Assembly: GCA_951812955.1 (NCBI GenBank)
Contig: OX638340.1
Location: 928,001 to 992,000 of the forward strand
Reading direction: 5' to 3'
From: an uncultured Gemmatimonadota bacterium
GTDB taxonomy: Bacteria; JAAXHH01
DNA: 64,000 nucleotides
Below the pieces are notes generated by a model. The model searched no databases. It saw only the letters and a list, made by a program, of their open reading frames with translations, and was not told the DNA's origin. This document shows, piece after piece, positions 15,194 through 54,810 of this stretch. Positions within the stretch are counted from its first letter, which is position 1; the number at the start of each line of letters is the position of its first letter. Position numbers and translations under genes: made by a program.

Positions 15194-15311
15194 TCGCAGG
15201 GACCCGGGCACGGTGCGGAGGATTGCCGACGGACAGACCGGCACGGCCTTTCAAGGCGGATAGGCCGGAGTACCGGCCATTCCGGGCGGATAGGCTACCC
15301 GCCGGATCCGT

Positions 15312-23401: not shown

Positions 23402-24232
23402 TCAGCCGCGCGTCCGGTGCCAGGGTTTGAACAGCGCGCGCTGGTCGTCGTCCCAGCGCTTGAAAGTCGATTCGGTTATGTACTGCGCTTCGTCCATGGT
23501 GGCCTGATTCTGCGAAAGCATCCAGTAGGGACCGTATCCTACGTGGATGGTCTTCCGGACCTGGACGGACCGGTTGGTAATGCCGCCGTGCCTCAGGTTT
23601 TCCGTGAACAGAATGGCGTCGCCGGCCTTGACTTCCAGGGCGATCATGCCGGGTTCCTCGTCCGGATTGCCGCCATGGGGGCAGGGAAGGTTCGTCTTGT
23701 GGGTGCCGGGGACAACGGAAAAAGCGCCCTGGTCCCGGGAAACATCGTGAATGAAGTAGATCATGCGCACCATCATGCAGTCGATTCCGCCCGCGTTGAA
23801 CGCGTATCGGTACTTCTGATTCTCCGGACGCATGCCGCCGTGGGAGCCCGACTGGTTGCCGCGGTAGCGTATCCGGATCTCCGAGTTGTTAATCGTGGCC
23901 CTGCCCTGGACGATCCCGCCGATATACGCCATCGTGCGCGGGTCGTTCACCAGTACGTCGAATCGCTCGTCGGCATTCCAGAAATCCTCTATGATAATGG
24001 TTCTTCCTTCTTCATTCGATCCATCGGCGTGGTATCCCAGTTCGGGATTGCGGTGATAGTCCGGTCCCCACGGGCTGGCCTTTCGGGGCGGTTCATCGAG
24101 GTGCCGCAAAGCATGGACTTCCAGTTCGTCCACGGCGGACGCAAGCGAGGACACGGTATCGGAATCCAGCATGTCCTCGATCACGATATAGCCCTGTCGG
24201 TCGAATTCGTAGCGTTCGACATCGTTCATCAC
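23402..24232 (-). CDS. Phytanoyl-CoA dioxygenase (PhyH) family Fe(II)/2-oxoglutarate oxygenase
   Basis: PhyH-like length and His/Asp facial-triad context (VVPGTHK...H). One of five paralogs in this window. Confidence 0.7.
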   Translation of the reverse strand: MMNDVERYEFDRQGYIVIEDMLDSDTVSSLASAVDELEVHALRHLDEPPRKASPWGPDYHRNPELGYHADGSNEEGRTIIIEDFWNADERFDVLVNDPRTMAYIGGIVQGRATINNSEIRIRYRGNQSGSHGGMRPENQKYRYAFNAGGIDCMMVRMIYFIHDVSRDQGAFSVVPGTHKTNLPCPHGGNPDEEPGMIALEVKAGDAILFTENLRHGGITNRSVQVRKTIHVGYGPYWMLSQNQATMDEAQYITESTFKRWDDDQRALFKPWHRTRG

Positions 24233-24238
24233 GACTCC

Positions 24239-25072
24239 TTAGCTGCCGGGTTCCCAGAGTGGAACGTAACCCGCCCGTTCGACGACGGCCTGACCCTCGT
24301 CGCTCAGTATCCAATCGACGAAGGACTTGATGGCGCCACGCGGCGAATGGGCGATGTAGAAATACAGGTACCTGTTCAGAGGATAGGTGCCGTCCCGCAC
24401 GGTGGCGGCCGTGGGAAACACACCGTTGATGCTGCAGGGCACAGTCCCCTCGCCAGATCGGATCCCTCCGTATCCGATCGCGTTGGGCCAGCGCGCCACG
24501 GTCTCGACCACGGCCCTGGAAGTGGGCACGATCCGCGCTTGCGGAGTAAAATCCAACTCCTGAAGCACGAATTGGTCGAAATACACGCGCGTGCCCGAGT
24601 TCGGGGGACGGTTTACCACGAGGATAGGTGCTTGCGGTCCATTAACCTGGCGCCAGTTATCGATCTTTCCCGAGAAAATCGCCCTGACCTGGTCGATGGA
24701 GAGATCGCGAACGGTATTCTCGCGATGGACATATATGCTCAGCGCGTCCCGTGCTGTCAGAATGCTCATGCCGAGCGAACCGCGCTTCTCCAGCAACCGC
24801 TTGACTTCATCGGCAAGCATGGTCCGCGAGGCTGCCCCAATATCGGTTTTCCCGGAGATCAACGACTCGATGCCAAAACGGCTGCTTCCGCTTTCGGTTT
24901 CGATGAACACCCCGGGGTGGGCGTCCATGTATGCGAACGCCCACTGCTGCACCAACCGGTTCATCGTGGTCGACCCGGTGATTTTGAATCGTACGGGTCC
25001 ATCCATCACGGGCGGCGCCGCGATACCGCACGATAAAAGAAACAGGCCCGCTATCCCAATGAGTCGCTTCAT
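24239..25072 (-). CDS. PstS-family periplasmic substrate-binding protein (phosphate/oxyanion-binding-like); an orphan with no adjacent permease or ATPase
   Basis: Signal peptide/lipobox-like N-terminus (LLSCG); GSTTM...SGSSRFGIESL...DIGAASR motifs typical of the PstS family. Confidence 0.62.
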   Translation of the reverse strand: MKRLIGIAGLFLLSCGIAAPPVMDGPVRFKITGSTTMNRLVQQWAFAYMDAHPGVFIETESGSSRFGIESLISGKTDIGAASRTMLADEVKRLLEKRGSLGMSILTARDALSIYVHRENTVRDLSIDQVRAIFSGKIDNWRQVNGPQAPILVVNRPPNSGTRVYFDQFVLQELDFTPQARIVPTSRAVVETVARWPNAIGYGGIRSGEGTVPCSINGVFPTAATVRDGTYPLNRYLYFYIAHSPRGAIKSFVDWILSDEGQAVVERAGYVPLWEPGS

Positions 25073-31300: not shown

Positions 31301-31370
31301 CGCCCCGCGCGCATGATCAGTGGGAGAACGCCCGCCACCCGCGGCGCCTGCATCACCGGCGAAAGGAGGG

Positions 31371-32252
31371 ATGATGCAATCGCAGAAGGCAGATGAGATC
31401 AACGTGGACGACCGGGACTGGCGCGCGTTGACCCGGGGCGAGCGTATCCGGATGATCGAAGAGGAGGGCTATCTGATCATACCGGACTGGATCCCGCCCG
31501 GCTATCTGGCGGAACTGAAAGCGGAATGCAGAAAACTCGAAACGGTCGGACGGGACTACAGCGAAAAGCAACGGGGCTGCAGGGATCCCCACCTGAGCAG
31601 CCGGAAACTGGCCGAACTCATCGCCTACGAACCCACTGTCGCATTCCTGGAAGCGTTGTTCGGCGACCGACTCGTTTTTATTCACTATACCTACGACCGG
31701 TCCGAGCCCGGCACCCCTGGCATCAGTCTACATACCGACGGTCAGCCCTACGGATCCAAGATATTCGGTTACGAAGGGAGTTGTCCCATCACCGTGCGGG
31801 TACTCTACTATCTCGACGACCTGACGATGGACGTATCACCTTTCCGGGTGGTTCCAAGGTCCCATCTCTGCATGCACGCGGACGCCCATCCGTACAAAAG
31901 GTACGACGGGCATCCCGAAGAGGTCGTCGTACCGTGCACCGCGGGTTCGGCGCTGTTTCTCAACCACCGGACGTTTCACGGCACCCTGCCCAACAGGGGA
32001 AACCGCTCGCGCGCCATGCTTGCGGTGGCTTACCGACCGGCCTGGGCCGGTCCGATCGTGGACGTTGCGCCGCGGGACCCGGCTGACCTGGAACGGATGC
32101 CCGATTCCGTCCGTCCCTTCCTGGGCGACCCGAGCATGCGATCTTACGAGTTCGGTGTTGGCAACAAACCCGAGGGGATGTCGGCCGGCGCGCCGGGGAT
32201 GAACCCAAGCAGGTGGGAAAGCCCGCGTGAGGGACGCGCGCGGAAAGCGTAA
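31371..32252 (+). CDS. PhyH family Fe(II)/2OG dioxygenase
   Basis: PhyH-like core with the His-x-Asp...His triad context. An AGGAGG Shine-Dalgarno lies immediately upstream of the ATGATG start. Confidence 0.68.
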   Translation: MMQSQKADEINVDDRDWRALTRGERIRMIEEEGYLIIPDWIPPGYLAELKAECRKLETVGRDYSEKQRGCRDPHLSSRKLAELIAYEPTVAFLEALFGDRLVFIHYTYDRSEPGTPGISLHTDGQPYGSKIFGYEGSCPITVRVLYYLDDLTMDVSPFRVVPRSHLCMHADAHPYKRYDGHPEEVVVPCTAGSALFLNHRTFHGTLPNRGNRSRAMLAVAYRPAWAGPIVDVAPRDPADLERMPDSVRPFLGDPSMRSYEFGVGNKPEGMSAGAPGMNPSRWESPREGRARKA

Positions 32253-34993: not shown

Positions 34994-35161
34994 GTGCCGG
35001 ATAAGAAGAAATCCCTGCTGTTGCGAATCAACACCGAGCTCTGGAATGACCTCAATGCCTGGGCGAAGGATGAATTGCGTAGCGTGAACGCGCAGATCGA
35101 GTATATTCTTCGGGAGGAAGTGCACAGACGGAAGAAACGACGGCGACGCGAGGAAGATTGA
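34994..35161 (+). CDS. 55-aa ribbon-helix-helix (Arc/MetJ-like) DNA-binding protein with a basic C-terminal tail
   Basis: GTG start. SLLLRINTELWNDLNAWAKDELRSVNAQIEYILREEV matches the Arc-type RHH pattern. Not in the ORF track (<60 aa). Confidence 0.45.
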   Translation: MPDKKKSLLLRINTELWNDLNAWAKDELRSVNAQIEYILREEVHRRKKRRRREED

Positions 35162-35241
35162 AGAGATCGAAACGTGTGCAGGTATACTTGTACGGGTGTT
35201 AATGTACACGCGTGGCCAAGCACGGGGTAGCTGTCATGGGT

Positions 35242-35289
35242 GGCGGACCGGCGGACCGGCGGACCGGCGGACCGGCGGACCGGCGAACC
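35242..35289. repeat. Octamer microsatellite (ggcggacc) x5 plus a variant copy
   Basis: Read from the sequence, between the RHH gene and the next PhyH gene. Confidence 0.9.
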
Positions 35290-35329
35290 GGCAAATCAGC
35301 GGTCGCGTATTTGATCCGGAGACATTGAA

Positions 35330-36190
35330 GTGGCGGTGGAAACGAACACGGACCTGGACCGATACGAGACTACGGGATTTGTGATTCTGAAGGGATTCTA
35401 TCCCGACACGGTCGTAGCGGCGGCCCGGGACGCCGCGGCCGAGCTCGTCGAACGGTTCGCGAAACGGCTTATGTCGTCGGGCACGGTCTCCCGGGATCAT
35501 GCCGAGGCATCGTTTGAAACGCGCCTGGCCCGGCTCTGTGAGGATGCCCCGGACGAAGCGCCCCACATATTTCGTAAGGAACTCCACCTGGCGGGTATGT
35601 ACGACGTGTTTTTCTACCCGCCCCTGCTCGATATCGTGGAATCCCTGATGGGCGAGGAACTTCGTCTTTATCCCAACTATTCCATCCGTCCCAAGCTGCC
35701 CGACCACGCCCCCACGCTCGTCCTCTGGCACCAGGACGGCGGGTATACCTACAAGGTCCACCGAGACGGGGACCACAGCGCGGAGACGGTCGATGCCCTG
35801 CGCATGATCAACGTATGGTCGCCGCTGGTCCCCGCCCGCGAGGACAACGGCTGCATGCAATTCATCCCCGGCACTCACCGAATCGGCATGGCCCGGCACG
35901 AAGACCGCGAATTCTACCTCGAGATATCGCAGGAGGACCTGGCGCCCTACGTGGACCAGGCCGTGTCCATCGAACTCGATCCGGGCGACATCGTCCTCTT
36001 CCACAACATGCTCTACCACCAGGGTCTGCCCAATCGCACCGACCAGGTAAGGTGGAGCATGGACTGGCGCTATCAGGACGCAAGGCAGTCCACGCTGCGC
36101 AGTACGCGGGGCCATCTTGCCCGCAGCCGCCAGTGTCCCGATGAGGTAGTACGTGACGCCAATGACTGGACCAGCCGTGTTTTTCAGTAG
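35330..36190 (+). CDS. PhyH family Fe(II)/2OG dioxygenase
   Basis: PhyH-like core (WHQDGGY...H...). GTG start with GGAG Shine-Dalgarno. The stop is followed by a 2x direct repeat of cggccgcgcagact. Confidence 0.72.
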   Translation: MAVETNTDLDRYETTGFVILKGFYPDTVVAAARDAAAELVERFAKRLMSSGTVSRDHAEASFETRLARLCEDAPDEAPHIFRKELHLAGMYDVFFYPPLLDIVESLMGEELRLYPNYSIRPKLPDHAPTLVLWHQDGGYTYKVHRDGDHSAETVDALRMINVWSPLVPAREDNGCMQFIPGTHRIGMARHEDREFYLEISQEDLAPYVDQAVSIELDPGDIVLFHNMLYHQGLPNRTDQVRWSMDWRYQDARQSTLRSTRGHLARSRQCPDEVVRDANDWTSRVFQ

Positions 36191-36313
36191 CAATCCGGCC
36201 GCGCAGACTTCGGCCGCGCAGACTCAGGCCGCCGAGGCCCTTTCTGGCGGCATGGCCACCCAATCCGTCCTCATCACCCAACCCGGCCCCATCGTCTTAT
36301 ACCGGTATTTCCT

Positions 36314-37564
36314 TTGATCCGTTTTCCAGATATACGGCTTGTCTTCCTTCGTGAACTCCGCGGCGCCCTGCGGGAACGTTCCATCGTCATCAACGTCGTG
36401 CTGGTTCCTTTGTTCATGTATCCTATCCTCCTGTGGATGGTCTACACGGGACTGTCCTTCGTCATCGGTCAGACGGAGAACTTCACGGCCCGGGTAATGA
36501 TCGCCGGCGACACCGAAGCGGGCGGGGCGCTCGTTCAAAAAATCAAAGCGGCGGATCGCGTTACAATCACCACCGTGGATACACCGCGTGACGCGATTCG
36601 CGACGGACGGCTGGATCTCCTGGTTGAACTCGCCCCCCGGGACGGTGGCTACGCGGATGACTTCGAGGTTCGGTTTACCGGTGATTCCTCCAAGGACCGG
36701 AGCCGGATCGCCACGAGTCGGGTCGAGGATCTGGTCACCCGGCACCGAACGGCCTATTTGGAAGCAGCTGGGAGGAACCGGGGACTGTCCGGCCCGGAAT
36801 ACCAGATGATCTGGATCGAACGGGAGAACATATCCTCCGAACGGGACATGGGAAGATTCATCCTCGGCATGGCGGTTCCCGTGCTGGTCATCATCATGGT
36901 GATCGTCGGCGGTATGTATCCCGCGCTGGACGCGACGGCAGGAGAAAGGGAACGGTCCACCTGGGAGACCACGCTGACGGCGGCGACGGATCGCGTGAAC
37001 GTCCTCGCGGGCAAGTACCTGTACGTGGCCGCCCTCTCCACAACGGCCGGCTTGCTGAATTTCGCGGCCATGAGCCTTTCCATGCGGACCCTCATGGCGC
37101 CGCTCCTGGGAGACCGTCTCGAAAGCGTGGCCTTTACGATCCCGTGGGCGTCCGTACCCCTGATCGTCGTCGTAACGGTACTGCTTGCCCTGTTCGTATC
37201 GGCGCTGCTCATGATTGTGGCCAGTTTCGCCCGAACTTTCAAAGACGCCCAGTCCCTGGCAGGTCCCTTCGTCACCGTCATGATCCTGGTACCCGCGGTC
37301 TTCATGCAGTTTCCCGGCCTGGAACTCACGACGTGGCTGGCCTGCGTGCCCATCATCAATGTCTGCCTGGTGTTCCGGGAAGCCATAGGCGGAGTCTATC
37401 AATGGCCCCAGATCGGCCTGACCCTGCTTATGGAAGGCCTGTACATCTGGATCGTTTTGCGGCTCGCTTCGGCGATCACCCGCTACGAAGACATCATGAC
37501 CGGCAGTTATGAAGGCGGCCTCACCGGTTTCCTGAAACACCGCCTCCTGCGCCGTACCTCCTGA
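36314..37564 (+). CDS. ABC-2 family exporter permease (NatB-like)
   Basis: Multi-TM ABC-2 permease architecture with a long extracytoplasmic loop after TM1. Confidence 0.68.
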   Translation: MIRFPDIRLVFLRELRGALRERSIVINVVLVPLFMYPILLWMVYTGLSFVIGQTENFTARVMIAGDTEAGGALVQKIKAADRVTITTVDTPRDAIRDGRLDLLVELAPRDGGYADDFEVRFTGDSSKDRSRIATSRVEDLVTRHRTAYLEAAGRNRGLSGPEYQMIWIERENISSERDMGRFILGMAVPVLVIIMVIVGGMYPALDATAGERERSTWETTLTAATDRVNVLAGKYLYVAALSTTAGLLNFAAMSLSMRTLMAPLLGDRLESVAFTIPWASVPLIVVVTVLLALFVSALLMIVASFARTFKDAQSLAGPFVTVMILVPAVFMQFPGLELTTWLACVPIINVCLVFREAIGGVYQWPQIGLTLLMEGLYIWIVLRLASAITRYEDIMTGSYEGGLTGFLKHRLLRRTS

Positions 37565-37578
37565 GAGGAACAACAACC

Positions 37579-38325
37579 GTGGCCGAACCCGTGTTCGTGA
37601 AGGACCTGACCAAGACCTACTACGATGAATCCCGCGGTCCCGTACACGCAGTAAGGCAGATCGGCTTTGACTGCCGCCCCGGCGAGATATTCGGGCTCCT
37701 CGGGGCTAACGGCGCCGGCAAGACCACTACCCTGCGCATGCTGACCACGATCCTCAAGCCCACCGCCGGCACCGCGAAGATCATGGGATACGACGTGGCG
37801 GAGGAACCCGTGGAGGTACGCCGACGCCTGGGGTTCTATTCGGCCACGACCGCATTGTATCCAAGGCTTTCCGCCAGGGAAACCATCGAGTTTTTTGCAC
37901 GGATCAACGGGTACCCCGCCTCCGGGACCCCTGCCCGGGTCGATGAGCTGATCGAACGATTCGGAATCGGAGAATATGCCCGCACCCGCATAGACAAACT
38001 CTCCAGCGGCATGAAGCAGAAAGTGGCGATCGCACGGACCGTGGCCCACGATCCGCCGATCCTGGTCTTCGACGAACCCACCGTCGGCCTGGACGTGCTC
38101 AATGCCCTGGAAATGCAGGGCATATTGGCCGAGTTGAAAGCGCAGGGGAAGACCATCCTGTTCTCTACCCATATCATGAGCGAAGCCGAGAAACTGTGCG
38201 ACCGGATTGCCATCATCCACGAGGGCCGGATCCTGGCCTGCGGCACCCTGGAATCGCTTCGTGAACGGACCGGGGCCCATTACCTGGAAGACGTTTTCGT
38301 CTCCTGCATCACAGAGGTCTCATGA
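37579..38325 (+). CDS. ABC transporter ATP-binding protein (NatA-like)
   Basis: Walker A GANGAGKTT, signature LSSGMKQKV, Walker B ILVFDEPT. Confidence 0.85.
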   Translation: MAEPVFVKDLTKTYYDESRGPVHAVRQIGFDCRPGEIFGLLGANGAGKTTTLRMLTTILKPTAGTAKIMGYDVAEEPVEVRRRLGFYSATTALYPRLSARETIEFFARINGYPASGTPARVDELIERFGIGEYARTRIDKLSSGMKQKVAIARTVAHDPPILVFDEPTVGLDVLNALEMQGILAELKAQGKTILFSTHIMSEAEKLCDRIAIIHEGRILACGTLESLRERTGAHYLEDVFVSCITEVS

Positions 38326-40454
38326 ACCGCGCGACGATCGGACTGCTGGTAAAACACGAAATGCGCATGCTCTTGCGGGACCGGCGGACCGTGGTGCTGA
38401 GTATTCTCCTGCCGCTCGTCGTTTTGCCGCTGATACTCTTCGGCTTCAAATTCATGAGCGAATGGCGCAGTGAGCAACTGGACGCAACGACGTATCGCTA
38501 TGCCGTGACCGGCGCCTATGCCGACTCGGTACGGGCACTCATAGGAAGGGGAGCGCGTCTCGCGGAAAAGGACGCGGAGGAAGGCCGGCAACCGGCCTCA
38601 TTCGTCGAGGTGGAGGTGGCCGAACCCGATTCGAGCCTATCCGCCGGCGACCTGGATTTCTACCTGGTAACCCAGACCGGCGCGGAGGCCGATTTGCTCG
38701 ATCTGGCTGTTGCGGGAACAGACTCGGCGATGCGCGCGGACGCGGAAATCGACCGGGCGGGTGAAGATATCGCCGACGTGACCGTGGCGGACGAGCGGTA
38801 TCCGGGCGTGCCCGTGGTCACGGTCTACTTTCGCGCCAACCGGGACGAATCCAGGACGGGCAGCGGCCTGCTGGTGGATCGCCTGGTGGACGCCAGGAAA
38901 CAGGACCGTACCGATGAGCTGCGCAGGCGGGGTTTCGCGGCGGATCCGGAGGAGGCCATAGAGCTTTCGAGGGTGGACGTGGCGACGCCGGAACAGGCAG
39001 CAGGATTCTATTTCGGACGTATCCTGCCGCTTTTTCTCGTATTCCTGACCCTAACCGGCGCTTCGGTGGCGGCCATGGACAGTGTCGCGGGGGAAAAGGA
39101 ACGCGGCTCCCTGGAAACCCTCCTGACCACTTCAGTCAGCCGGTTCGAAATCATTACCGCGAAGCAGTTGACGATCCTGTCGGTCGCGCTCTTCATCACC
39201 CTGGCCCAGGCCGGAAACCTTTTCGTCTATCTTGCCCTCGGATTCATCGAATTCTCCGCGGACCTGGAAATCGACGTGTCACCCGGCGCCGTGCTGGTAT
39301 TGCTTGCCCTTTACGTCCCCGTGGCCGTCGTGGTTTCGTCCCTGCTCCTCCTGGTGTCGGCCTATGCGAAGACTTACCGGGAGACGCAGCTGTACCTCCT
39401 GCCTGTTTTCTTCGGACTCATGATCCTGACGGCGGCGGGCCTGTTGCCGGGTGTTTCCCTCCGCTCGCTGATCGCCGTCGTTCCCGTAGCGAACGTCAGC
39501 GTGGCCGTACGTGAGATCATGGTCGGCCATTACGATATCCCCATGCTCCTGGTAACCTGTGCGGCCATGCTCGCAGCAGCCTTCATGATGCTCAGGTTGT
39601 CGTCGCGCATGCTGGGCATGGAAAGGCTCATCACCGCGCAGGACACGGACGCGGCGGATCTGGAGGGAGGCGCCGCGCTGTTTCCCAGGAGGGTGCTCCT
39701 GTGGTTTGTCGGCATGTGGGCGCTGATTATCATCGCGCCGGCGAACGTCGAGGCGTTGACGCGTCTGGAGGGACAGTGGGCCTTCAATATGTTCGTCATC
39801 TTTTTCGGCGGTTCTTTGCTCATGATCCGTTTACACCGGCTCGACTGGCGGCAGGCCCTGGCGCTCCGTCCGGTGCGTCCGCAGGTCTGGCTGGCGGTAC
39901 TCCTCCTGGTGCCTTCGACCTTGTTGACCGGTATCTTCATTGTAGGACTGTCCAGCGTATTCCTGCCCTTCCCGGAAGAAATGCTGGAGAAATTCGCCAG
40001 CCAACTCATTCCCGAAGACTTCCCGATGTGGCAGATCCTGCTCATGCTGGCCCTCACGCCCGGGATCGTGGAGGAAATGGCCTTCCGGGGACTGTTGCTT
40101 CACGGGCTTCACCGCCGGCTCAGGCCGCTGGCGCTCATCCTGGTGGTCGGCCTGATTTTCGGACTGTTTCACCAGGCCCTTTTCCGGATCATCCCCACGG
40201 CCTACCTGGGTATGGTGCTGACCGCCGTGGCCGTGCTCACGGGTTCGATCCTTCCGTGCATACTACTCCACGCCGGCAACAACGCCTTCGCCTTCCTGCT
40301 CTACCGTTCTGGTACCGAAGTCGAAAATTGGCCCCCGGAACTGCTCCTGTTGAACATCCCCGTTTTTGTGTTCGCGATCTATCTGCTGTATCGATATCGA
40401 ACGCCCTATCCTGGCCTGTTGCCCTTCCGGAAAAAGGTTCCTGAAGACGCGTAG
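38322..40454 (+). CDS. Fusion of an ABC-2 exporter permease with a C-terminal CPBP (CAAX protease / Abi) intramembrane metalloprotease domain
   Basis: N-terminal half resembles the upstream ABC-2 permease. The C-terminal half carries CPBP motifs EEMAFRG, FGLFH and HAGNNAF. A 4-nt overlap with the ATPase gene. Confidence 0.68.
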   Translation: MNRATIGLLVKHEMRMLLRDRRTVVLSILLPLVVLPLILFGFKFMSEWRSEQLDATTYRYAVTGAYADSVRALIGRGARLAEKDAEEGRQPASFVEVEVAEPDSSLSAGDLDFYLVTQTGAEADLLDLAVAGTDSAMRADAEIDRAGEDIADVTVADERYPGVPVVTVYFRANRDESRTGSGLLVDRLVDARKQDRTDELRRRGFAADPEEAIELSRVDVATPEQAAGFYFGRILPLFLVFLTLTGASVAAMDSVAGEKERGSLETLLTTSVSRFEIITAKQLTILSVALFITLAQAGNLFVYLALGFIEFSADLEIDVSPGAVLVLLALYVPVAVVVSSLLLLVSAYAKTYRETQLYLLPVFFGLMILTAAGLLPGVSLRSLIAVVPVANVSVAVREIMVGHYDIPMLLVTCAAMLAAAFMMLRLSSRMLGMERLITAQDTDAADLEGGAALFPRRVLLWFVGMWALIIIAPANVEALTRLEGQWAFNMFVIFFGGSLLMIRLHRLDWRQALALRPVRPQVWLAVLLLVPSTLLTGIFIVGLSSVFLPFPEEMLEKFASQLIPEDFPMWQILLMLALTPGIVEEMAFRGLLLHGLHRRLRPLALILVVGLIFGLFHQALFRIIPTAYLGMVLTAVAVLTGSILPCILLHAGNNAFAFLLYRSGTEVENWPPELLLLNIPVFVFAIYLLYRYRTPYPGLLPFRKKVPEDA

Positions 40455-40583
40455 GACGATCGCAAATCGCGATAGCCGATTGATATTGCCTCGCGTAGCC
40501 TGCAACCTTATATTGCGAACTGTTTTCCGGGAATCCCCGCGTAATCGCGCCTACTCTGGACTGCCGTTATATCCATTCCATAC

Positions 40584-41177
40584 ATGTCCCGTCTTTCCAA
40601 ACATCCGCTAGCACTATTCATCCGAGTCATGCTAAAAAGCCCGACGAGCGTGTGTGCCGTGGCGCCGAGTTCGCGGACGCTCGCCCGGGCGATGGCGAAA
40701 GGGCTGACGATCGGTGACGACGAGTCCGTCGTGGAGCTGGGGCCCGGTACGGGCGCTATCACGGACCAGATCCGCCACATTTTGCCCCATGACGGCGGAT
40801 ACCTGGGCATCGAAATCGAGCCGCGGTTCGTCGACCTGCTGCGGAAACGATATCCCGGTCTTCGATTTGAACAGAACACTGTAGCGAAGGCCTTCCAGCT
40901 GCACGCGAACACGGGAACCCCTCCGGTCAGGGCCGTGATCTCCGGGCTGCCGATCTCGACCATGCCGGTCCAGGTCATTGACGAAATCATCGCGAATCTC
41001 GACCGGCTTATGAAACCCGGTACTGTTTTCCGCATGTTCCAGTATATACACGCCTACTACCTTCCAGCGTCGATTCAGTTCAGACGGCGGATGGCGCCGT
41101 TCTTCTCCTGTTACCGGGTTGAATCAGTTGTCCTCAAGAACCTGCCTCCGGCCCTCGTGATTACCTGGACGCGCTAG
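40584..41177 (+). CDS. Class I SAM-dependent methyltransferase
   Basis: VVELGPGTGAIT SAM-binding motif I. Confidence 0.55.
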   Translation: MSRLSKHPLALFIRVMLKSPTSVCAVAPSSRTLARAMAKGLTIGDDESVVELGPGTGAITDQIRHILPHDGGYLGIEIEPRFVDLLRKRYPGLRFEQNTVAKAFQLHANTGTPPVRAVISGLPISTMPVQVIDEIIANLDRLMKPGTVFRMFQYIHAYYLPASIQFRRRMAPFFSCYRVESVVLKNLPPALVITWTR

Positions 41178-41382
41178 CGCTCCGCGACGCGTGTCTGCCG
41201 GAATTTTAAAGTATTTCAGGTGTTCGGTTGTAATATATGAAGATTCCCGACGATCAACGGCGGGGAAACGGGGGCCCGTCGCGCCGGCCAGGCGTCTACC
41301 TGACGCCGGTCCTGACTGAATGGCAGTACGTCGAACTCCCTTCGTTCCAATTTGCCCAAGCCAGGAAAGAACATAGGTTTTC

Positions 41383-44082
41383 ATGCGTCTGAAACCCCTC
41401 GCCTTTTCCGTTCTCACCGTGATTTCCATATCCACGTTGACATTTGATACCGTGACGGCCCAGTCCGAAAGTGACGAACCCGCCCTGCCCGCAATGGAGG
41501 CGGCGGAGCGCACCGGGCACATCGAGATCGACGGAAGGCTGGATGAAGCGGCCTGGACGGCGGCCATTCCGGCTACACAGTTCGTCCAGCGGGAGCCGGT
41601 CGAAGGGGCCAATCCCGACAAGGCCACCGAAGTACGGGTGCTCTACGACGCCGACGCCATCTACATCGGCGCGCGGATGTTCGACGATCATCCGGAGCAT
41701 ATCGGCCGGCAACTCGTCCGGCGAGACGAGCGCGGCGCTTTCGACCTGTTCTCCGTTTCCATCGATCCGAACAACGACAGGCTTACCGGGTATCAGTTCC
41801 GCGTCAGTGCTGCAGGGGCGCAGCGGGACGCGTACCTGTATGACGACGTGCGGCAGGACGATGCGTGGGACGCCGTATGGGAATCGGGCGTGGTGATCGA
41901 CGAACTGGGCTGGGCCGCCGAGATGCGGATTCCCCTTTCCCAGATGCGATACGAGACGACGGACGGCGCCCAGTCCTGGGGCGTGAACTTCATGCGGCGG
42001 TGCCTTGCCACGAACGAGGTCATCGACTTCGCTCTCCAGTCCCGGCTGCGGTATGGGAGGGTGAGCGTCCTGGGCAGGCTGAACGGACTGGTCTTGCCGT
42101 CGGACGCCCGCCGCCTGGAGGTCAGGCCCTATACCCTCGGCAGCGCCCGGACCGCGCAGGCCGAACAGGGGAATCCCTTCTTCGACGGATCCGATTACAA
42201 TGCACGGGCGGGCCTTGACGTACGGTACGGCCTCGGTTCGTCCTACCACCTCGACATGACGATCAATCCCGACTTCGGGCAGGTGGAAGTAGATCCGGCC
42301 GTCGTAAATCTCTCGGCCTTTGAAACGTTTTTCCGGGAACAACGCCCCTTTTTCGTCGAGGATGCCCAGGTTTTCGAATTCGGCCTGTCGGGCCGGGACG
42401 AACTGTATTACAGCCGACGGATCGGGCGGCAACCCCGGGGCGGCACGCCGGACGACGCGGATTTCTCCGATATTCCCACGGAGACTAGCATTCTCGGCGC
42501 CGCCAAGATCACCGGCCGATCGCAGGGTGGCGTTTCCATCGGTGCCCTGGCCGCGGTTACGGGAAGGGAAACGGGGAAGGCCTATTCCCTGGTTGACAGG
42601 CGAACAGAGGAGTTCACGGTGGAACCCCGGGCGGGATTCAGTGTCTTCCGGATCCGCCGGGATTTCAGGAACGGCGCCAGCCAGTTCGGGGCAGTGGGCT
42701 CGCTAATGCACCGGGCCCTGCCCGATGACGGCGCCTTCGATTATCTCACATCGGGGGCCTTTACCGGAGGAGTGGACTTCGAACACAACTGGGGGGGAGC
42801 GAGAGAGAGAGACTGGGCAGTCTACGGGTACCTGGCGGGTAGCCGCGTCCAGGGAAGCACGGAAGCGCTGACCCGGCTGCAGCGGGCCAGCAACCACTAC
42901 TTCCAGCGTCCGGACGCCACGCGTTTCGCCGTGGATTCAACCGCCACGTCCATGAACGGGTACAATTGGCGGTTGCAGTTCGCCAGGCGAGACTCGCAGA
43001 ACTGGTCCGGAGCGGTCTGGTTCGCCCAGATTTCGCCCGGGTTCGAAGTCAACGACCTGGGATTCTCCCGATCGAACGAACGCCTCGACGGCGGCGCGCG
43101 GATCGAATACCAGAACATCACGCCGGGACGGTTCTTCCGCAACTATGAGTTCCGTTTCTTCACGTTCTACAACTTCCGGCACGAGGCCCTCGACGACCCG
43201 TGGTCCTGGTCGTCCTGGCGGAACAACTATAAGAACGGACGTTTCTTCGCGGGGGGCAATTTCGAACTCAACAACTACTGGGAGGTCTTTCTCGGCTCCA
43301 GTTACAGCCCCACCCAGTTCAGCGATACGCGGACCCGGGGCGGTCCGGTGATGGAGGATCCCGGATCCTATTCCTTCGATCTCGGCATCAGGTCGGACCG
43401 GAGGAAACGGATCTCCCTGGAGACGGAATTCGACTACGAGCGATTCCAGCGGGGTGGCCACGAGTTTGAAACGGAAATCGAAGCCACGATTCGTCCGTCT
43501 CCCAACTGGGAACTGGAACTTGCGCCAAATTTCAGCTGGGAGCGCAACGCCGCCCAGTACGTTACGCAGACCGACGCCCTGGCCTTCGAGCCCACCTACG
43601 GCAGCCGGTACGTGTTTTCGGACCTGCAGAGGCGGTCCTTTTCCCTCGAAACCCGTTTGAACGTGGCCTTTTCGCCCGATTTGACCCTGCAGCTGTACGC
43701 CCAGCCCCTGCTGTCCTCGGGCGATTACCTCAACTACAAGCAATTGCTCCGTGGCAACAGTTTCGATTTCGACGTGCTGGACGAGGGTACGCGGTCCTTC
43801 ATCGATCCGGTCGACGGTTACCGTTACCTGGACTTCAACGGGGACGGTATGCCCGATATCAATTTCTCGGACCGGGACTTCAACATCCAGTCTCTGCGCA
43901 TGAACATCGTGCTGCGCTGGGAATACCGGCCCGGTTCCCGGGTATTCCTCGTCTGGCAGCAGACCCGCAGCGAAAGGGACGAAAACGGGACGCTTGACAT
44001 CGGCAGAGACTTCGGCAACCTGTTCGGCGGGGAATCGGAGAACATCTTCATCGTCAAGTTCAACTACTGGTTCGGCGTGTGA
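41383..44082 (+). CDS. Large secreted DUF5916-type protein with an N-terminal CBM9-like domain; probable outer-membrane beta-barrel
   Basis: Signal peptide, N-terminal CBM9-like region, and a C-terminal Y/F/W/N/R-rich alternating beta-strand composition ending in an aromatic residue. Confidence 0.55.
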   Translation: MRLKPLAFSVLTVISISTLTFDTVTAQSESDEPALPAMEAAERTGHIEIDGRLDEAAWTAAIPATQFVQREPVEGANPDKATEVRVLYDADAIYIGARMFDDHPEHIGRQLVRRDERGAFDLFSVSIDPNNDRLTGYQFRVSAAGAQRDAYLYDDVRQDDAWDAVWESGVVIDELGWAAEMRIPLSQMRYETTDGAQSWGVNFMRRCLATNEVIDFALQSRLRYGRVSVLGRLNGLVLPSDARRLEVRPYTLGSARTAQAEQGNPFFDGSDYNARAGLDVRYGLGSSYHLDMTINPDFGQVEVDPAVVNLSAFETFFREQRPFFVEDAQVFEFGLSGRDELYYSRRIGRQPRGGTPDDADFSDIPTETSILGAAKITGRSQGGVSIGALAAVTGRETGKAYSLVDRRTEEFTVEPRAGFSVFRIRRDFRNGASQFGAVGSLMHRALPDDGAFDYLTSGAFTGGVDFEHNWGGARERDWAVYGYLAGSRVQGSTEALTRLQRASNHYFQRPDATRFAVDSTATSMNGYNWRLQFARRDSQNWSGAVWFAQISPGFEVNDLGFSRSNERLDGGARIEYQNITPGRFFRNYEFRFFTFYNFRHEALDDPWSWSSWRNNYKNGRFFAGGNFELNNYWEVFLGSSYSPTQFSDTRTRGGPVMEDPGSYSFDLGIRSDRRKRISLETEFDYERFQRGGHEFETEIEATIRPSPNWELELAPNFSWERNAAQYVTQTDALAFEPTYGSRYVFSDLQRRSFSLETRLNVAFSPDLTLQLYAQPLLSSGDYLNYKQLLRGNSFDFDVLDEGTRSFIDPVDGYRYLDFNGDGMPDINFSDRDFNIQSLRMNIVLRWEYRPGSRVFLVWQQTRSERDENGTLDIGRDFGNLFGGESENIFIVKFNYWFGV

Positions 44083-44294
44083 CCGCGGGCGGGTTCGGCG
44101 TGTGACCGCGGCTGGACAGCCCCGCGCGGCCTCGATTGCGCCTTGACAGAAAAGGGCCGGGACGCCCATATTGAAATTGTAAAAGTATGCCGGCGCTTAG
44201 GGGTATCCGGTTCGATCCGGCCGGCCGGAATTTCTGTAAGGAAGTAACGGTCAAGTGGCAACGGGACACACCGCCGAAGGACATAGACCCTATC

Positions 44295-46535
44295 ATGAAA
44301 ATCATGAAACCGATTCTAAAATCCATTCTGTTGCTCATAACTATGTGCGCATTCGGCCTTGCGACCCGGTCCGTCCAGGGACAGGCGGTTCGCACCGATT
44401 ACATGGAAACGGAACTGGTCGTGGAGACGACGTCCATCAAGCCCGGGCAGCCTTTCTGGGCCGGCCTGCGGATGAAGATGGACGAGCACTGGCATACGTA
44501 TTGGCGCAACCCGGCCGATTCGGGTCTTCCTACCGAGATTGACTGGGCGCTTCCCGATGGTTTCCAGGCTGGAGAGATCAACTGGCCCTATCCCCAGAAG
44601 ATTGTGCTCGACATCCTGGCCAGCTACGGGTACGAGGGCGAGACGCTGCTGCTCGTGGAGATCACACCCCCGGCGGATCTGGAGACCGGCGGCACGGCCG
44701 ACATTGGGGCCTTCGCCTCCTGGCTGGTCTGCGCGGATATCTGCCTACCGGGAGAATCGGGATACCAGGTAACGCTCCCCGTAACCGATGAGGCGCCTCA
44801 GGCCGACGAAAGATGGACGGATCTGTTTACCCGCACCCGGGAGCAGCTTGCGGTCCCGGTACCGGGGTGGCAGGTCGAGGCCGTCATATCCGATTCCACC
44901 GTGGCGTTGCACGCGTCCACGCCCGAGTGGTACCGCGGATCGCTTACCCGCGTCGAATTCTATCCGTACAACGAAGACCTGATCGACTACGTATCGCCCC
45001 AGAGACTGGAGAAGACCGAAACCGGGTACCTGTTGACTATGCGCCGGTCGGGCTTCTACACTGGCAGGCCCGATGAAATCACGGGCGTGCTGGTATCCGC
45101 GGAAGGATGGCGCGGCGCCGGATCGGAGCGTGCCCTGGCCGTTGCCGCAGTCTACGCGGATGAGCTTCCGGCGGCGGTCGCCGCCATCGGACCGGCGGTT
45201 GCGGGTGAAACGGCGGGCGCCCTTGCGCCGGTCTCCGGCGATCTGGTTGCCGGCCTGTGGCAGGCCCTGCTTTTCGCCCTCATCGGCGGCCTGATTCTCA
45301 ACCTGATGCCCTGCGTGCTCCCCGTGCTGTCCATCAAGGTCCTCGGATTCATACACCAGGCGGGCGACGATCCTGCCAAGGCCCGGCGGCACGGATTGGT
45401 ATTTACCGCGGGCGTCCTGATTTCCTTTCTCGCGCTGGCGGCGGTGCTGATTGCCCTGCGTGCCGGGGGAGAACAATTGGGCTGGGGATTCCAGCTTCAG
45501 TCGCCGGCCTTTCTCGTCATCCTGTCGGTCATCATATTCGTGTTCGGCCTCAGTCTATTCGGCGTCTTCGAAATCGGTACGTCCCTTGTCGGCCTTGGCG
45601 GCAGGGCTGATTCGGGCAGCGGACTCGGTGGCTCCTTCATGAGCGGCGTCCTGGCCACGGTCGTGGCCACGCCGTGCACCGCGCCTTTCATGGGCGTGGC
45701 CCTGGGATACGCATTGACGCAATCGGCGGCGCAATCGCTGGCGATCTTCGGATTCCTGGGCCTGGGCATGGCCCTGCCCTACCTGACCCTGTCTTCCGTG
45801 CCCGCCCTGCTGAAATATGTACCAAAACCTGGCGCCTGGATGGAGTCGTTCAAGCAGTTCATGGGATTCCTGATGATGGCCACCGTGGTCTGGCTGCTCT
45901 GGGTGCTGAACCTTCAGACGGACCCAAACCTCGTCGCCCTCGTGATGGTCCTGCTGGTGATGGTGAGCCTGGGAAGCTGGATACTCGGCCGCTGGGGAGG
46001 GATCTCCGCCGGAAGCAGGACCCGGATCGCGGCCAGGTCCGTCGCAACGGTAATCGTTTTCGCGAGCCTCGCGGCGGTATTGAGCCAGGTACCCGCCCCG
46101 GCCAAGGCCGAGCGGGCCGCGATGACGCCGGTGAACAGCGCGGGGCTGGAGTGGCAACCCTTCTCCCGGCAACTTGTACAGGATCTGCGTGCAACGGGCA
46201 AACCGGTGTTCGTGGACTTCACCGCTGCCTGGTGCCTTAGTTGCCAGGTGAACAAGCGCGTAGCACTGAATGACAGCCGCGTGGTGGAACGGTTCGAGAC
46301 GCTGGGTGTGGCGACTGTCCAGGCCGACTGGACGTCACGGGACCCCGAGATCACGCGGGCACTCGCCGAATTCGGACGCAACAGCGTCCCGCTGTACGTG
46401 CTGTACTCGGGCGGACCCGATTCCGAACCGGCAATTCTACCGGAACTGCTCACGCCCGGTCTGGTGCTGGACGCCCTGAAGCAGGCCGAAACAGGTAGTG
46501 CCGCGAGCGGACGGACTGTCGGCATGATCGATTGA
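44295..46535 (+). CDS. dsbD: Thiol:disulfide interchange protein DsbD
   Basis: Signal peptide plus DsbD-alpha-like region, a central CcdA/DsbD TM core (LNLMPCVLPVLS) and a C-terminal thioredoxin domain with a WCLSC active site. Confidence 0.8.
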   Translation: MKIMKPILKSILLLITMCAFGLATRSVQGQAVRTDYMETELVVETTSIKPGQPFWAGLRMKMDEHWHTYWRNPADSGLPTEIDWALPDGFQAGEINWPYPQKIVLDILASYGYEGETLLLVEITPPADLETGGTADIGAFASWLVCADICLPGESGYQVTLPVTDEAPQADERWTDLFTRTREQLAVPVPGWQVEAVISDSTVALHASTPEWYRGSLTRVEFYPYNEDLIDYVSPQRLEKTETGYLLTMRRSGFYTGRPDEITGVLVSAEGWRGAGSERALAVAAVYADELPAAVAAIGPAVAGETAGALAPVSGDLVAGLWQALLFALIGGLILNLMPCVLPVLSIKVLGFIHQAGDDPAKARRHGLVFTAGVLISFLALAAVLIALRAGGEQLGWGFQLQSPAFLVILSVIIFVFGLSLFGVFEIGTSLVGLGGRADSGSGLGGSFMSGVLATVVATPCTAPFMGVALGYALTQSAAQSLAIFGFLGLGMALPYLTLSSVPALLKYVPKPGAWMESFKQFMGFLMMATVVWLLWVLNLQTDPNLVALVMVLLVMVSLGSWILGRWGGISAGSRTRIAARSVATVIVFASLAAVLSQVPAPAKAERAAMTPVNSAGLEWQPFSRQLVQDLRATGKPVFVDFTAAWCLSCQVNKRVALNDSRVVERFETLGVATVQADWTSRDPEITRALAEFGRNSVPLYVLYSGGPDSEPAILPELLTPGLVLDALKQAETGSAASGRTVGMID

Positions 46536-48039: not shown

Positions 48040-48990
48040 ATGGGCTGTTTCCGTTTTGAGGCGACTGGATACCCGGTTTATTACGCAATGCGCCTGGAGA
48101 CCGCCATGGCCATGTTCGGCGACCCTGAAGCGTTCGTCATGATGAGCGAACGCGAGAAGTATCTCTACGATCTCCAGGGGTTCCTCGTGGTGCGCGACCT
48201 GCTTTCCACCGATGAGGTCCGGGCACTGAACGATGCCCTGGACGCCAATCCGGACCGGACCGCCGAACACGGACCGGGCGGCGCGCTGGACGGCACGCCA
48301 CTGGCCGGACCATATTCGCAATACATCCACTACGAGGGCATGCTGACCTGGGACCGGCCCTGGTGCCAGCCCTTCCGCGAACTCCTCGCCCACCCGAAGC
48401 TGATCCCCTATCTCAACACCATGATGGGACGAGGCTGGAAACTGGATCACAATATCGACGTGCTCACTTCGAAACCGGGCGCCCAGGGTACGCCCTTCCA
48501 TGGCAACAGCACGGGTACGTTCGCCGGTTCGACCTATTACACGTACGACGACGGCCGGATGCGCAGCGGCCTGATCGTCTGCCAGTTCTACCTGACCGAC
48601 GTGAATCCGGGAGATGGCGGGCTCACCGTGATTCCCGGCAGTCACAAGGCCAATTTTCCCATGCCGGGATACGTCCGCAATTACGAGGACCACCAGGAGA
48701 TCTTCCATCATATCGCCGTCAAGGCCGGCGACCTGGTCATCTTCAACGAGGCGACGACGCACGGTGCCTTGCCGTGGAAGGGAGTGGGCGAGCGCCGCTG
48801 CGTGCTCCACCGGTACATCCCGAAATACATGCACTACGATGGCGGAGTCTACGAAACGCGCATGCCCGAATGGACGCATGAGCTCACCGATGCCCAGCGG
48901 GCCGTGCTGGAACCACCGTACATCTACAACCGCCCCCTGATCGAGGACGACGGCGAATCGATCGCGCGTCCCCGCAGGGAAGGCATCTGA
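48040..48990 (+). CDS. PhyH family Fe(II)/2OG dioxygenase, tandem paralog 1; the true start is possibly at 48103 or 48139
   Basis: Roughly 60% identical to the next gene (YLYDLQGF, WDRPWC, NPGDGGL, VIPGSHK, FNEATTHG motifs). Confidence 0.75.
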   Translation: MGCFRFEATGYPVYYAMRLETAMAMFGDPEAFVMMSEREKYLYDLQGFLVVRDLLSTDEVRALNDALDANPDRTAEHGPGGALDGTPLAGPYSQYIHYEGMLTWDRPWCQPFRELLAHPKLIPYLNTMMGRGWKLDHNIDVLTSKPGAQGTPFHGNSTGTFAGSTYYTYDDGRMRSGLIVCQFYLTDVNPGDGGLTVIPGSHKANFPMPGYVRNYEDHQEIFHHIAVKAGDLVIFNEATTHGALPWKGVGERRCVLHRYIPKYMHYDGGVYETRMPEWTHELTDAQRAVLEPPYIYNRPLIEDDGESIARPRREGI

Positions 48991-49042: not shown

Positions 49043-49975
49043 GTGTCCGGGCCTACTTCCGACTACCCCGCCGACTACTTGCTACATGCGAAAGTGCAGA
49101 CCGGTATGAACCCGACATCCGAATCCTTCGCCACCATGGCGCCCCATGAGCAGTACCTCTTCGATCTGCAGGGGTTTATCGTGGTGCGCAATGCCCTTGC
49201 GCCCGAACAGGTCGATGCCCTGAACGCGGCGCTGGACGCCAATCACGACAAACGTAAGGAAGACGTGGTCACCCAGACGAGCGAGGCGCTGAAGGGCAAG
49301 CAGTACCGCGGTCTCTACGACGGCATGCTGACGTGGGATCGGCCCTGGTGCCTGCCCTTTCGCGAAGTGCTTGCCAATCCGAAGATCATACCGTACCTGA
49401 ACACGCTGCTGGGCCGGGGGTGGAAGCTGGACCACGATCCGTTCATCTACACATCGAGCGTGGGGACCGAGGGCCTGAACCTCCACGGTTACGGACTGGC
49501 CGAGTTCAACGGTTCCCGGTTCTACCACTACCAGAACGGCGCCATGCGTTGCGGATTGATCAACTGCCAGTACCAGCTGAACGACGTGAACCCTGGCGAC
49601 GGCGGGCTGTGCGTCATCCCGGGCAGCCACAAGGCGAATTTCACCCTGCCCGGCGACATTTCCCGTTACGAAGCCCACCAGGAGATCGTCCGCCACGTGT
49701 CCATGAAAGCGGGCGACCTGGTCATCTTCAACGAGGCGACGACCCACGGGACGCTGCCCTGGAGGGGCGAAGGCGAACGTCGCTCTCTGTTCTACCGGTA
49801 TACCCCCAAGTACATGCATTACACCGGCGGCGTATACGAAACCGGCCTGCCGGAGTGGACGAGAGAGCTTACGGACGCCCAGCGCGCCGTGCTCGAACCG
49901 CCCTATGTCTATCAACGGCCGATGATCGACGACGACGGACAGACGCTGTCGACCCCGCGGCGCGAAGGAGAGTGA
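49043..49975 (+). CDS. PhyH family Fe(II)/2OG dioxygenase, tandem paralog 2; the start is possibly at 49106 or 49136
   Basis: Paralog of the preceding gene with the same motif set. Confidence 0.75.
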   Translation: MSGPTSDYPADYLLHAKVQTGMNPTSESFATMAPHEQYLFDLQGFIVVRNALAPEQVDALNAALDANHDKRKEDVVTQTSEALKGKQYRGLYDGMLTWDRPWCLPFREVLANPKIIPYLNTLLGRGWKLDHDPFIYTSSVGTEGLNLHGYGLAEFNGSRFYHYQNGAMRCGLINCQYQLNDVNPGDGGLCVIPGSHKANFTLPGDISRYEAHQEIVRHVSMKAGDLVIFNEATTHGTLPWRGEGERRSLFYRYTPKYMHYTGGVYETGLPEWTRELTDAQRAVLEPPYVYQRPMIDDDGQTLSTPRREGE

Positions 49976-54294: not shown

Positions 54295-54810
54295 ATGACA
54301 ATGAGACCACTCGTGGTCATGGGTTTACGGACCCTGGCTAATCTGGACGCGAAAGAAACCATGTACGAGCAGATCGACCGGAACGAAATCCGGGCGACGG
54401 GGCGGTTCGCAGGGGATCACCTGGAGACCATTGCATCGGGGGGGTTCGCCCTCGGCATCCTGTCCAGCCACAGCGTTGCGCGCATCGAGCGGGTGATCGA
54501 TCACCTGGGATGGTCCCACCTGTTTCGGTCGGATCATCTGATCTCTTCGGATCCACTGGTCCGGAAAGACGCCTCGAACTGGGAGGGATGGCGCAGGGAA
54601 TACCAGGCGCGCGGGCTTTCGCTCCACACGGTGGTCGATATCGGGGAAACGCTGATCAGGAATCTCGCCGGGTCGAGTGCATTCGACGAAATAGACAAGT
54701 ACTACATCACCGATGACGCGAGCGTGCGTATCGAAGGAGCGACACGCATAACGGCCCTGGACCGAACGCTGGCTTATCGACAGGCGTCCCGGTCATCACA
54801 GGACCGGTGA
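54295..54810 (+). CDS. Hypothetical protein, possibly a degenerate HAD-like hydrolase lacking the N-terminal DxD nucleophile motif
   Basis: Weak resemblance of the C-terminal half to HAD motifs II-IV (GILSSHS, VRKD, VVDIGETLIRNL). The N-terminus has no DxDG. The stop-containing 3' end is duplicated (ccggtgaacaac x2, period 20). Confidence 0.35.
   Translation: MTMRPLVVMGLRTLANLDAKETMYEQIDRNEIRATGRFAGDHLETIASGGFALGILSSHSVARIERVIDHLGWSHLFRSDHLISSDPLVRKDASNWEGWRREYQARGLSLHTVVDIGETLIRNLAGSSAFDEIDKYYITDDASVRIEGATRITALDRTLAYRQASRSSQDR

Follow-up and report, generated by a model that had tools for sequence, protein, structure and literature searches.

The operon discussed here lies at positions 36314-40454 on the plus strand of a 64,000-nucleotide stretch (positions 928,001 to 992,000 of contig OX638340.1) from an uncultured Gemmatimonadota bacterium. 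This whole stretch is called the window below, and all coordinates refer to it. Three open reading frames (ORFs) of the same strand encode an ABC-2 permease (PermA), an ABC ATPase and a second ABC-2 permease (PermB) that continues into a CPBP intramembrane protease domain. An earlier note on this DNA had described a permease, an ATPase and a 710-residue fusion protein encoded by overlapping or tightly spaced genes; the ORF list agrees with it to the nucleotide, with a 14-nucleotide (nt) gap between the PermA and ATPase genes and a 4-nt overlap (ATGA) between those of the ATPase and PermB. The three-gene operon and its parts are as follows, with lengths in amino acids (aa) and with TM standing for transmembrane.

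36191-36313, plus strand: upstream intergenic region, presumed promoter or leader region, carrying two sets of short tandem repeats
36314-37564, plus strand: PermA, TTG start, 416 aa; ABC-2 (type V) permease without a CPBP domain
37579-38325, plus strand: ABC ATPase (nucleotide-binding subunit), GTG start, 248 aa
38322-40454, plus strand: PermB, permease-CPBP fusion, ATG start, 710 aa
38322-39620, plus strand: permease half of PermB, residues 1-433; six predicted TM helices, N-in/C-in
38457-38996, plus strand: acidic extracytoplasmic (periplasmic) alpha/beta domain between TM1 and TM2 of PermB, residues 46-225
39621-39668, plus strand: cytoplasmic linker between the two halves of PermB, residues 434-449 (16 residues)
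39669-40394, plus strand: CPBP/Rce1-like glutamic intramembrane endopeptidase half of PermB, residues 450-691, eight helices

Taken together, this set of genes constitutes a probably heterodimeric ABC-2 (type V) exporter with a CPBP domain fused in cis to the C terminus of PermB.

The PermB fusion and its partner genes

The earlier note had assigned the N-terminal half of the 710-aa protein to the ABC-2 permeases and its C-terminal half, on the strength of three motifs, to the CPBP proteases; both assignments hold, being borne out by Pfam matches, the predicted fold and conservation across the family. The profile searches that it proposed for the domain boundaries place the ABC-2 region at residues 9-424 (ABC2_membrane_2, 3.4e-22, 79.4 bits, residues 9-369; ABC2_membrane_3, 7.6e-17, 61.9 bits, residues 22-424) and the Rce1-like PF02517 domain at residues 570-656 (4.7e-18, 65.7 bits), the respective Pfam cutoffs being 27.2, 31.6 and 22.4 bits. 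The CPBP half is predicted to adopt the Rce1 fold, a multi-helix bundle that can be superposed on a solved CPBP structure, and it displays the EExxxR motif as EEMAFRG (residues 584-590, nt 40071-40091; E584, E585 and R589), the FxxxH motif as FGLFH (residues 613-617, nt 40158-40172; H617) and the HxxxN motif as HAGNNAF (residues 650-656, nt 40269-40289; H650 and N654). All of these catalytic positions are invariant in an alignment of 50 homologues with 46-97% identity, and the CPBP core (residues 569-662) is the best conserved part of the protein, with 64% identity to distant homologues versus 54% in the permease helices and 34% in the periplasmic domain. The equivalent residues of MmRce1 (E140, E141, R145, H173, H227 and N231) are critical or essential (PMC5874806). 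The CPBP-fold proteins known or presumed to be nonproteolytic, namely SpdC, LnsB and APH-1, have lost their catalytic residues (PMC7387801); given that these residues are invariant here, an active glutamic endopeptidase is the parsimonious reading. Judged from the alignment, the catalytic residues of the CPBP half are intact and under strong purifying selection.

The permease half is predicted to form a six-helix TM domain of the type V fold with both termini in the cytoplasm. The structural neighbors of this half handle lipids, lipid-linked polymers and amphipathic peptides; a search by sequence found no solved relatives. An invariant cytoplasmic motif, GEKERGSLETLLTT, follows TM2. The 180-residue periplasmic domain between TM1 and TM2 is acidic (39 D+E against 21 K+R) and, in its AlphaFold2 secondary structure, combines strands and helices with a disordered insert at residues 134-156; it is the most variable region of PermB, its 34% identity to distant homologues comparing with 54-64% elsewhere. 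The linker that joins the two halves is, by comparison with the same distant homologues, among the most conserved segments (a mean of 65% identity with zero gaps), although the predicted local distance difference test (pLDDT) score of the model falls below 50 at residues 435-446. Its pattern (…YED/ERL.TG/A…GG…F.K/RR.LL) is echoed in the C-terminal tail of PermA at about residues 389-412 (37478-37549). The linker may accordingly be more than a passive tether, namely a functional cytoplasmic element with a part in regulation or in the docking of the ATPase.

The AlphaFold2 model of PermB was built from 50 homologues, with a pLDDT of 80 and a predicted template modeling (pTM) score of 0.64. It runs from an N-terminal cytoplasmic stub through TM1, the 180-residue domain, five further TM helices and the linker to the eight helices of the CPBP half. 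Positively charged residues are in excess in the loops predicted to be cytoplasmic (19 K+R in 102 residues, versus 5 in 87 outside), which supports the predicted topology of 14 helices with both termini inside; this also supplies the topology prediction for which the earlier note had called.

A frameshift or an assembly error that joins two separate genes was named in the earlier note as what would undo the fusion, and it can be set aside, nothing having been found in its favor. The fused ORF is uninterrupted in 21 independently assembled genomes with 75-95% identity (metagenome-assembled genomes labeled Gemmatimonadetes or Latescibacterota, or unnamed), and the same PF12679 + PF02517 + PF12698 architecture is shared by all 120 homologues listed, which reach down to 46% identity and include proteins labeled Zixibacteria and Acidobacteriota; a frameshift or assembly join is therefore excluded. 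When the C-terminal 275 residues of PermB were searched against 1.84 billion representative proteins (50%-identity clusters), most of the best 150 matches were proteins of 630-760 aa with the domain at the C terminus. Of the shorter matches, the one checked (P0125, 296 aa) proved to be a fragment from a 1-kb contig, in a cluster that also has a member of 671 aa. The fusion is also continuous in cultured Firmicutes. With an ORF continuous in 21 genomes, intact in most of the nearest clusters and bridged by a gap-free linker, a frameshift, mis-assembly or merged ORF is rejected, and we see next to no chance that the fusion is an artefact uniting separate permease and CPBP genes.

The two partner genes are equally well defined. 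PermA matches ABC2_membrane_3 (3.6e-18, 66.2 bits) and ABC2_membrane_2 (7.9e-15, 55.3 bits), both above their gathering scores, and it aligns at 303.6 bits with positions 2-411 of the 636-position NCBIfam model NF041647, which describes the whole fusion. It is 28% identical to residues 171-460 of PermB, the similarity extending into the PermB linker, and it ends approximately where the first CPBP helix of PermB begins. By these comparisons, PermA and the N-terminal half of PermB are paralogues; since PermA ends near that first helix, PermA and PermB probably form a heterodimer that carries a single protease domain. In a rough neighbor-joining tree of the permease halves, which is too crude for dating the duplication, the PermB proteins cluster together and the PermA proteins lie on long, separate branches. 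The ATPase matches ABC_tran (PF00005; 1.8e-31) above the gathering score, with a drrA-type family as its top NCBIfam subfamily, and the motifs read from its translation are intact: a Walker A GANGAGKTT at residue 42, the signature LSSGM at 141, a Walker B ILVFDEP at 161 and the H-loop at 196-198. It is presumably present in two copies per complex. Purine runs resembling ribosome-binding sites precede the start codons of both the ATPase and PermB genes, the purine-rich stretch before the ATPase GTG being GAGAGGAA.

Upstream of the operon, a 15-nt unit is repeated twice in tandem at 36196-36225 and an 18-nt unit twice at 36257-36292. A similar repeat unit of about 15 nt recurs in several of the seven related loci that were aligned, its copy number seeming variable when judged by eye. 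A better-conserved block of about 25 nt stands directly before the TTG start of PermA, and in several relatives this block includes a small palindrome, CCTGAAACAGG. No sigma-70-like site was found in 36191-36313, and a search for riboswitches or leader RNAs across 35000-41500 gave no Rfam match. Candidate readings of the upstream element are an operator, a promoter of unusual type or a leaderless start.

A named family in two-gene and three-gene forms

PermB is collinear with NF041647 (ABC_perm_CPBP, an equivalog model), its residues 4-661 matching positions 3-634 of 636. A 48%-identity homologue from Acidobacteriota, P0067, already carries the NF041647 name at NCBI, and the Joint Genome Institute (JGI) labels homologues as “sodium transport system permease protein” or [quoted passage not shown] The core members of the family are Firmicute proteins. 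One of these, encoded on a plasmid of Paraclostridium sordellii, recovered by tblastn of plasmids and named by PGAP, reaches 704.5 bits against the model and aligns by BLASTP with PermB residues 11-659 at 23% identity over 668 residues (E, 2e-47). With this protein as the query, named members were retrieved from Clostridioides difficile (a single cluster of 633 sequences), Romboutsia, Paraclostridium and their relatives. The fusion architecture is hence not new but belongs to a curated, named and widespread family, and the novelty that the earlier note implied was overstated, inasmuch as NF041647 describes just this architecture and both NCBI and JGI already name homologues accordingly.

The Firmicute members share their layout with the window protein: the ABC-2 permease is NatB-like and has a large extracytoplasmic loop, the linker is conserved, the eight-helix CPBP domain has all of its motifs, and a translationally coupled ATPase gene lies directly upstream. 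The Firmicute loci examined consist of two genes, for the ATPase and the fusion, and lack PermA, which implies a homodimer with two proteases. In contrast, the window's clade has a third gene for the paralogous permease without a CPBP domain, implying a heterodimer with one protease. The consistent use of this three-gene heterodimeric form by the clade is the only point that is even mildly new.

The three-gene clade has members labeled Gemmatimonadetes, Latescibacterota, Acidobacteriota and Zixibacteria. We compared seven distinct loci, comprising distant relatives (46-57% identity) and remote relatives (CPBP domain about 30-35% identical), and the order PermA-ATPase-PermB is kept in all seven. 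The CPBP-less permease measures 420-456 aa, the ATPase 246-250 aa and the fusion 640-751 aa. The flanks, on the other hand, differ from locus to locus and include genes for TrbI, alanine dehydrogenase, a sulfatase, a LysR regulator, a phage integrase, a histidine kinase and small heat-shock proteins, among others. Because gene order is kept while the flanks vary, the set is an autonomous, self-contained chromosomal module. Among the 21 close genomes synteny is complete from ThuA to DsbD and is therefore uninformative with regard to functional linkage. The neighborhood comparison suggested by the earlier note, aimed at conserved small peptides or bacteriocin genes, came out negative: no linked small-peptide, bacteriocin or ribosomally synthesized and posttranslationally modified peptide (RiPP) gene was found among the window ORFs scanned (13610-58990), which are ordinary housekeeping genes, or in the seven distinct clade loci.

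The P. sordellii plasmid (NZ_CP080292.1, 13.6-28.4 kb) presents a different setting. There, the ATPase and fusion genes are the last two of a co-directional lantibiotic operon, in which agr-like regulators are followed by LanM, two identical precursors of the lichenicidin-A2 family, a flavodoxin, LanT (a peptidase-containing ABC exporter), a helix-turn-helix regulator and a hypothetical protein. LanFEG was not found in this operon, whose end is occupied by the ATPase-fusion pair instead. Since LanT already supplies leader cleavage and export, the position of the pair suggests a role in self-immunity. The lantibiotic link was also considered as a general trait of the family and is rejected as such, being a single case. 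A BceAB-like module and an S8 peptidase are also encoded near this lanthipeptide locus.

Candidate functions of the fused pump and protease

Type V exporters act on lipids and on hydrophobic or amphipathic molecules embedded in the membrane. We tentatively propose that the pump extracts membrane-embedded peptides and that the protease cleaves them, as a form of resistance or immunity, a proposal to which we would give a little less than an even chance. Powered by ATP hydrolysis, the PermA/PermB dimer would pull a hydrophobic or amphipathic peptide out of the membrane or expel it; the fused protease domain, of which each transporter has one, would then cleave this peptide at the outer face of the membrane, and the physiological role would be intrinsic protection against membrane-active peptides. 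The mouth of the catalytic cavity of MmRce1 is on one side and its termini are on the other (PMC5874806). As both ends of the CPBP half of PermB are predicted to be cytoplasmic, its cavity should face the other way, and the predicted topology and this analogy together suggest that it opens toward the periplasm and the outer leaflet.

Parallels for such a role come from several sides. The LanFEG ABC-2 transporters are linked to self-protection from membrane-active peptides. Abi/CPBP proteins too are associated with bacteriocin self-protection (PMC3578759), and, as described above, one member of the family occupies the immunity position in a lantibiotic operon; unlike these immunity systems, the window and its clade have no bacteriocin locus. 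Cleavage-transport coupling as a concept is exemplified by LanT and other peptidase-containing ABC transporters (PCATs), in which a protease (a C39 peptidase) is covalently fused to an exporter subunit, as in PermB. In PCATs a soluble cytoplasmic cysteine peptidase is placed at the N terminus of another class of exporter, one with its own ATPase domain. PermB differs in that an intramembrane glutamic protease, with a cavity predicted to face outward, is placed at the C terminus of a type V (ABC-2) permease and the ATPase has a gene of its own. It is likewise unlike MmRce1 (PDB 4CAD), MrtX and MroQ, which stand alone and whose lipidated or peptide substrates are known. The suggestion of the earlier note that export and proteolysis are coupled, or that the operon is an immunity module, thus survives in part: it is the most plausible reading and has one P. 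sordellii lantibiotic operon in its favor, whereas no peptide gene is linked to the operon in the window or the seven clade loci.

Several points weigh against this proposal. PermB scores 428.9 bits against NF041647, 6 bits below the 435-bit cutoff, which its clade relatives straddle (401.4, 430.6, 442.1 and 451.8 bits). A lantibiotic link is present in one of six Firmicute contexts, the other five being stand-alone; the stand-alone copies include the two members nearest to the plasmid copy (about 65% identity) and those of C. difficile and Romboutsia. All loci of the window's clade stand alone as well, without lantibiotic linkage, and less than 1% of Abi/CPBP proteins occur in bacteriocin loci (PMC3578759). 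That the cavity faces outward is deduced from a predicted topology and from analogy to one archaeal structure, and the relative placement of the two halves of PermB is uncertain, given the pTM of 0.64 and the linker pLDDT below 50. The literature that could be searched yielded no functional study of any member of the fusion family, and a search within the Haft myxosortase preprint turned up no mention of the fusion. Finally, a deeply conserved, single, stand-alone operon found in many phyla would suit a housekeeping role in the envelope equally well.

A somewhat doubtful alternative is that the operon serves the maturation and export, or the sorting, of a substrate whose gene lies elsewhere in the genome. 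The CPBP domain would remove a leader or a C-terminal membrane anchor from a peptide or a lipid-anchored surface protein, and the ABC-2 dimer would export or extract the product, in the manner of SagE with SagGHI, of myxosortase-type sorting or of PCATs. The streptolysin S operon offers the same parts in unfused form, with SagE, a CPBP protein, as the suspected leader protease and SagGHI as an ABC ATPase and two ABC-2 permeases (PMC4513790). As in the window, one CPBP protease is thereby combined with one ATPase and two ABC-2 permeases, and leader cleavage followed by export has been proposed; SagE, however, is a separate gene within a RiPP cluster that includes precursor and cyclodehydratase genes, whereas the CPBP domain of the window is fused and has none of these nearby. 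The SagH model gives weak matches to the window protein (19 bits) and to the Firmicute member (47.6 bits), both far below its cutoff. CPBP proteases are proven sorters of proteins with lipidated C-terminal signals, as in the case of MrtX (PMC11980579), the catalytic residues are conserved here, and the top subthreshold CPBP subfamilies for the window domain are the sorting proteases MrtS and MrtJ; nevertheless, the domain falls outside the equivalogs of MrtS, MrtJ and the AgrD-processing protease MroQ, with scores far below their cutoffs (30.1 versus 130, 20.3 versus 75 and 15.4 versus 270 bits, respectively). Such systems are normally linked to their substrates, yet neither the window nor the distant loci have a linked precursor peptide, modification enzyme or tagged target. 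A scan of the window for candidate sorting signals, namely a hydrophobic helix followed by a basic C-terminal tail, returned none except in PermB itself and unrelated membrane proteins, 64 kb being a weak test. Further, in the sole lantibiotic cluster, the dedicated LanT peptidase-exporter is already present for this job.

The stand-alone nature of the operon, with its variable flanks, its deep conservation in monoderm and diderm phyla and, in the window, a setting that is otherwise an ordinary housekeeping chromosome, agrees with a role in membrane housekeeping, in which leftover signal peptides, or membrane proteins that are damaged or wrongly inserted, would be cut by the protease and their fragments removed from the bilayer by the pump. 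Such a unit would correspond, in fused form, to the functional coupling of Ecs and intramembrane proteolysis in Firmicutes: inactivation of the Ecs ABC transporter of Bacillus subtilis inhibits intramembrane proteolysis (PMC2996298). The protease of the Ecs-RasP precedent is, however, a site-2 metalloprotease and not a CPBP protein, and housekeeping leaves the recruitment of a second copy to the end of a lantibiotic operon unexplained; we hold this explanation to be unlikely. Far less probable still is a NatAB-type efflux pump for sodium or another small solute, with the CPBP half reduced to a nonproteolytic scaffold or regulatory domain. Many homologues are so named by JGI, and CPBP-fold proteins such as SpdC and APH-1 can be noncatalytic scaffolds. 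NatAB of B. subtilis, which extrudes sodium and is the source of the “sodium transport system permease” label, shares with the window an ABC ATPase partner, and NatB, which we take to be of the same ABC-2 class as the permease half of PermB, presumably has a large extracytoplasmic loop between TM1 and TM2 as well; NatB is not known to carry a CPBP domain. The sodium label, though, is an automatic orthology transfer, the structural neighbors of the permease half move lipids, polymers and peptides, and the invariance of the catalytic residues, with the CPBP core as the best-conserved part of the protein, is unlike what is seen in known scaffold CPBPs.

Abortive infection or phage defense, an association of CPBP/Abi domains raised in the earlier note, was examined separately and is rejected: PADLOC gives no match for the fusion, the neighbors show only generic ATPase and methyltransferase similarity, and the flanks are housekeeping genes. 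We also consider it conceivable, albeit improbable, that the family represents a hitherto unrecognized type of machine, whose ABC-2 exporter and intramembrane protease work as a unit on peptides embedded in the membrane or on proteins anchored by lipids, and that the asymmetric form evolved by the clade, with one protease for each heterodimer, serves a core envelope function in its several poorly studied phyla. Within that scenario, the machine might be a “pump-and-shred” resistance device, with antimicrobial peptides destroyed during their expulsion, or a Lol-like extraction machine with a built-in sorting protease.

Neighboring genes and significance of the family

The gene that directly follows the operon had been noted earlier as a SAM methyltransferase lying immediately downstream, and it is indeed there, 129 nt from PermB:

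40584-41177, plus strand: class I SAM methyltransferase, 197 aa, 129 nt downstream of PermB

It shows weak likeness, far below the NCBIfam cutoffs, to OlsG (ornithine-lipid N-methyltransferase, 72.6 bits) and PmtA (phospholipid N-methyltransferase, 56.2 bits), and may be a methylase of membrane-lipid head groups. The hint that it belongs to the unit did not hold up, in that it is kept beside the module only in the near relatives of the window and in one 57%-identity lineage, unrelated genes taking its place elsewhere. It was also considered as a partner of the protease by analogy to eukaryotic CAAX processing, in which Rce1 is followed by ICMT, and was rejected: it is a soluble class I enzyme, a promoter-like site lies within the 129-nt gap before it, and it is absent downstream of the module in the Acidobacteria-type and remote loci. 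The methyltransferase is a neighbor and not a component. It is followed by genes for a DUF5916/CBM9 protein (41383-44082, plus strand, 899 aa) and a DsbD-type thiol:disulfide interchange protein (44187-46535, plus strand, 782 aa), and the block methyltransferase-DUF5916-DsbD-peroxiredoxin is also present in the 57%-identity lineage.

Elsewhere in the window, four separate paralogues of the phytanoyl-CoA dioxygenase (PhyH) family are encoded within the 64 kb, all on the plus strand (31320-32252, 35330-36190, 48040-48990 and 49043-49975); PhyH genes adjoin the module in two distant loci too. ORFs without a Pfam match at an E value of 1e-5 are found at 56330-58093 (minus strand, 587 aa), 23417-25036 (plus strand, 539 aa), 14408-15244 (minus strand, 278 aa) and 54295-54810 (plus strand, 171 aa), and the 539-aa ORF has a third-position GC content of 0.59 versus about 0.75-0.8 in its neighbors. 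The uroporphyrinogen decarboxylase ORF at 17226-18737 (plus strand, 503 aa) has its URO-D domain only from residue 165, pointing either to a start further downstream or to an unexplained N-terminal extension.

For a specialist the fusion as such is unsurprising, as it is already in annotation pipelines, and the window instance adds little beyond one more, borderline-scoring member; the main contribution is the conserved three-gene heterodimeric version of its clade. Function is testable in tractable members, those of C. difficile and its relatives, and the P. sordellii plasmid locus would be a good place to begin experiments. Members of the fused exporter-protease family are widespread, extending from C. 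difficile and other Peptostreptococcaceae to uncultured lineages labeled Acidobacteriota, Gemmatimonadetes, Latescibacterota and Zixibacteria, and prokaryotic CPBP proteases are still largely unexplored (PMC11980579). If true, the coupling of ATP-driven extraction to intramembrane proteolysis would be an additional mechanism by which peptide resistance, immunity or protein sorting is achieved, and it would give the prokaryotic CPBP proteases a defined partner.

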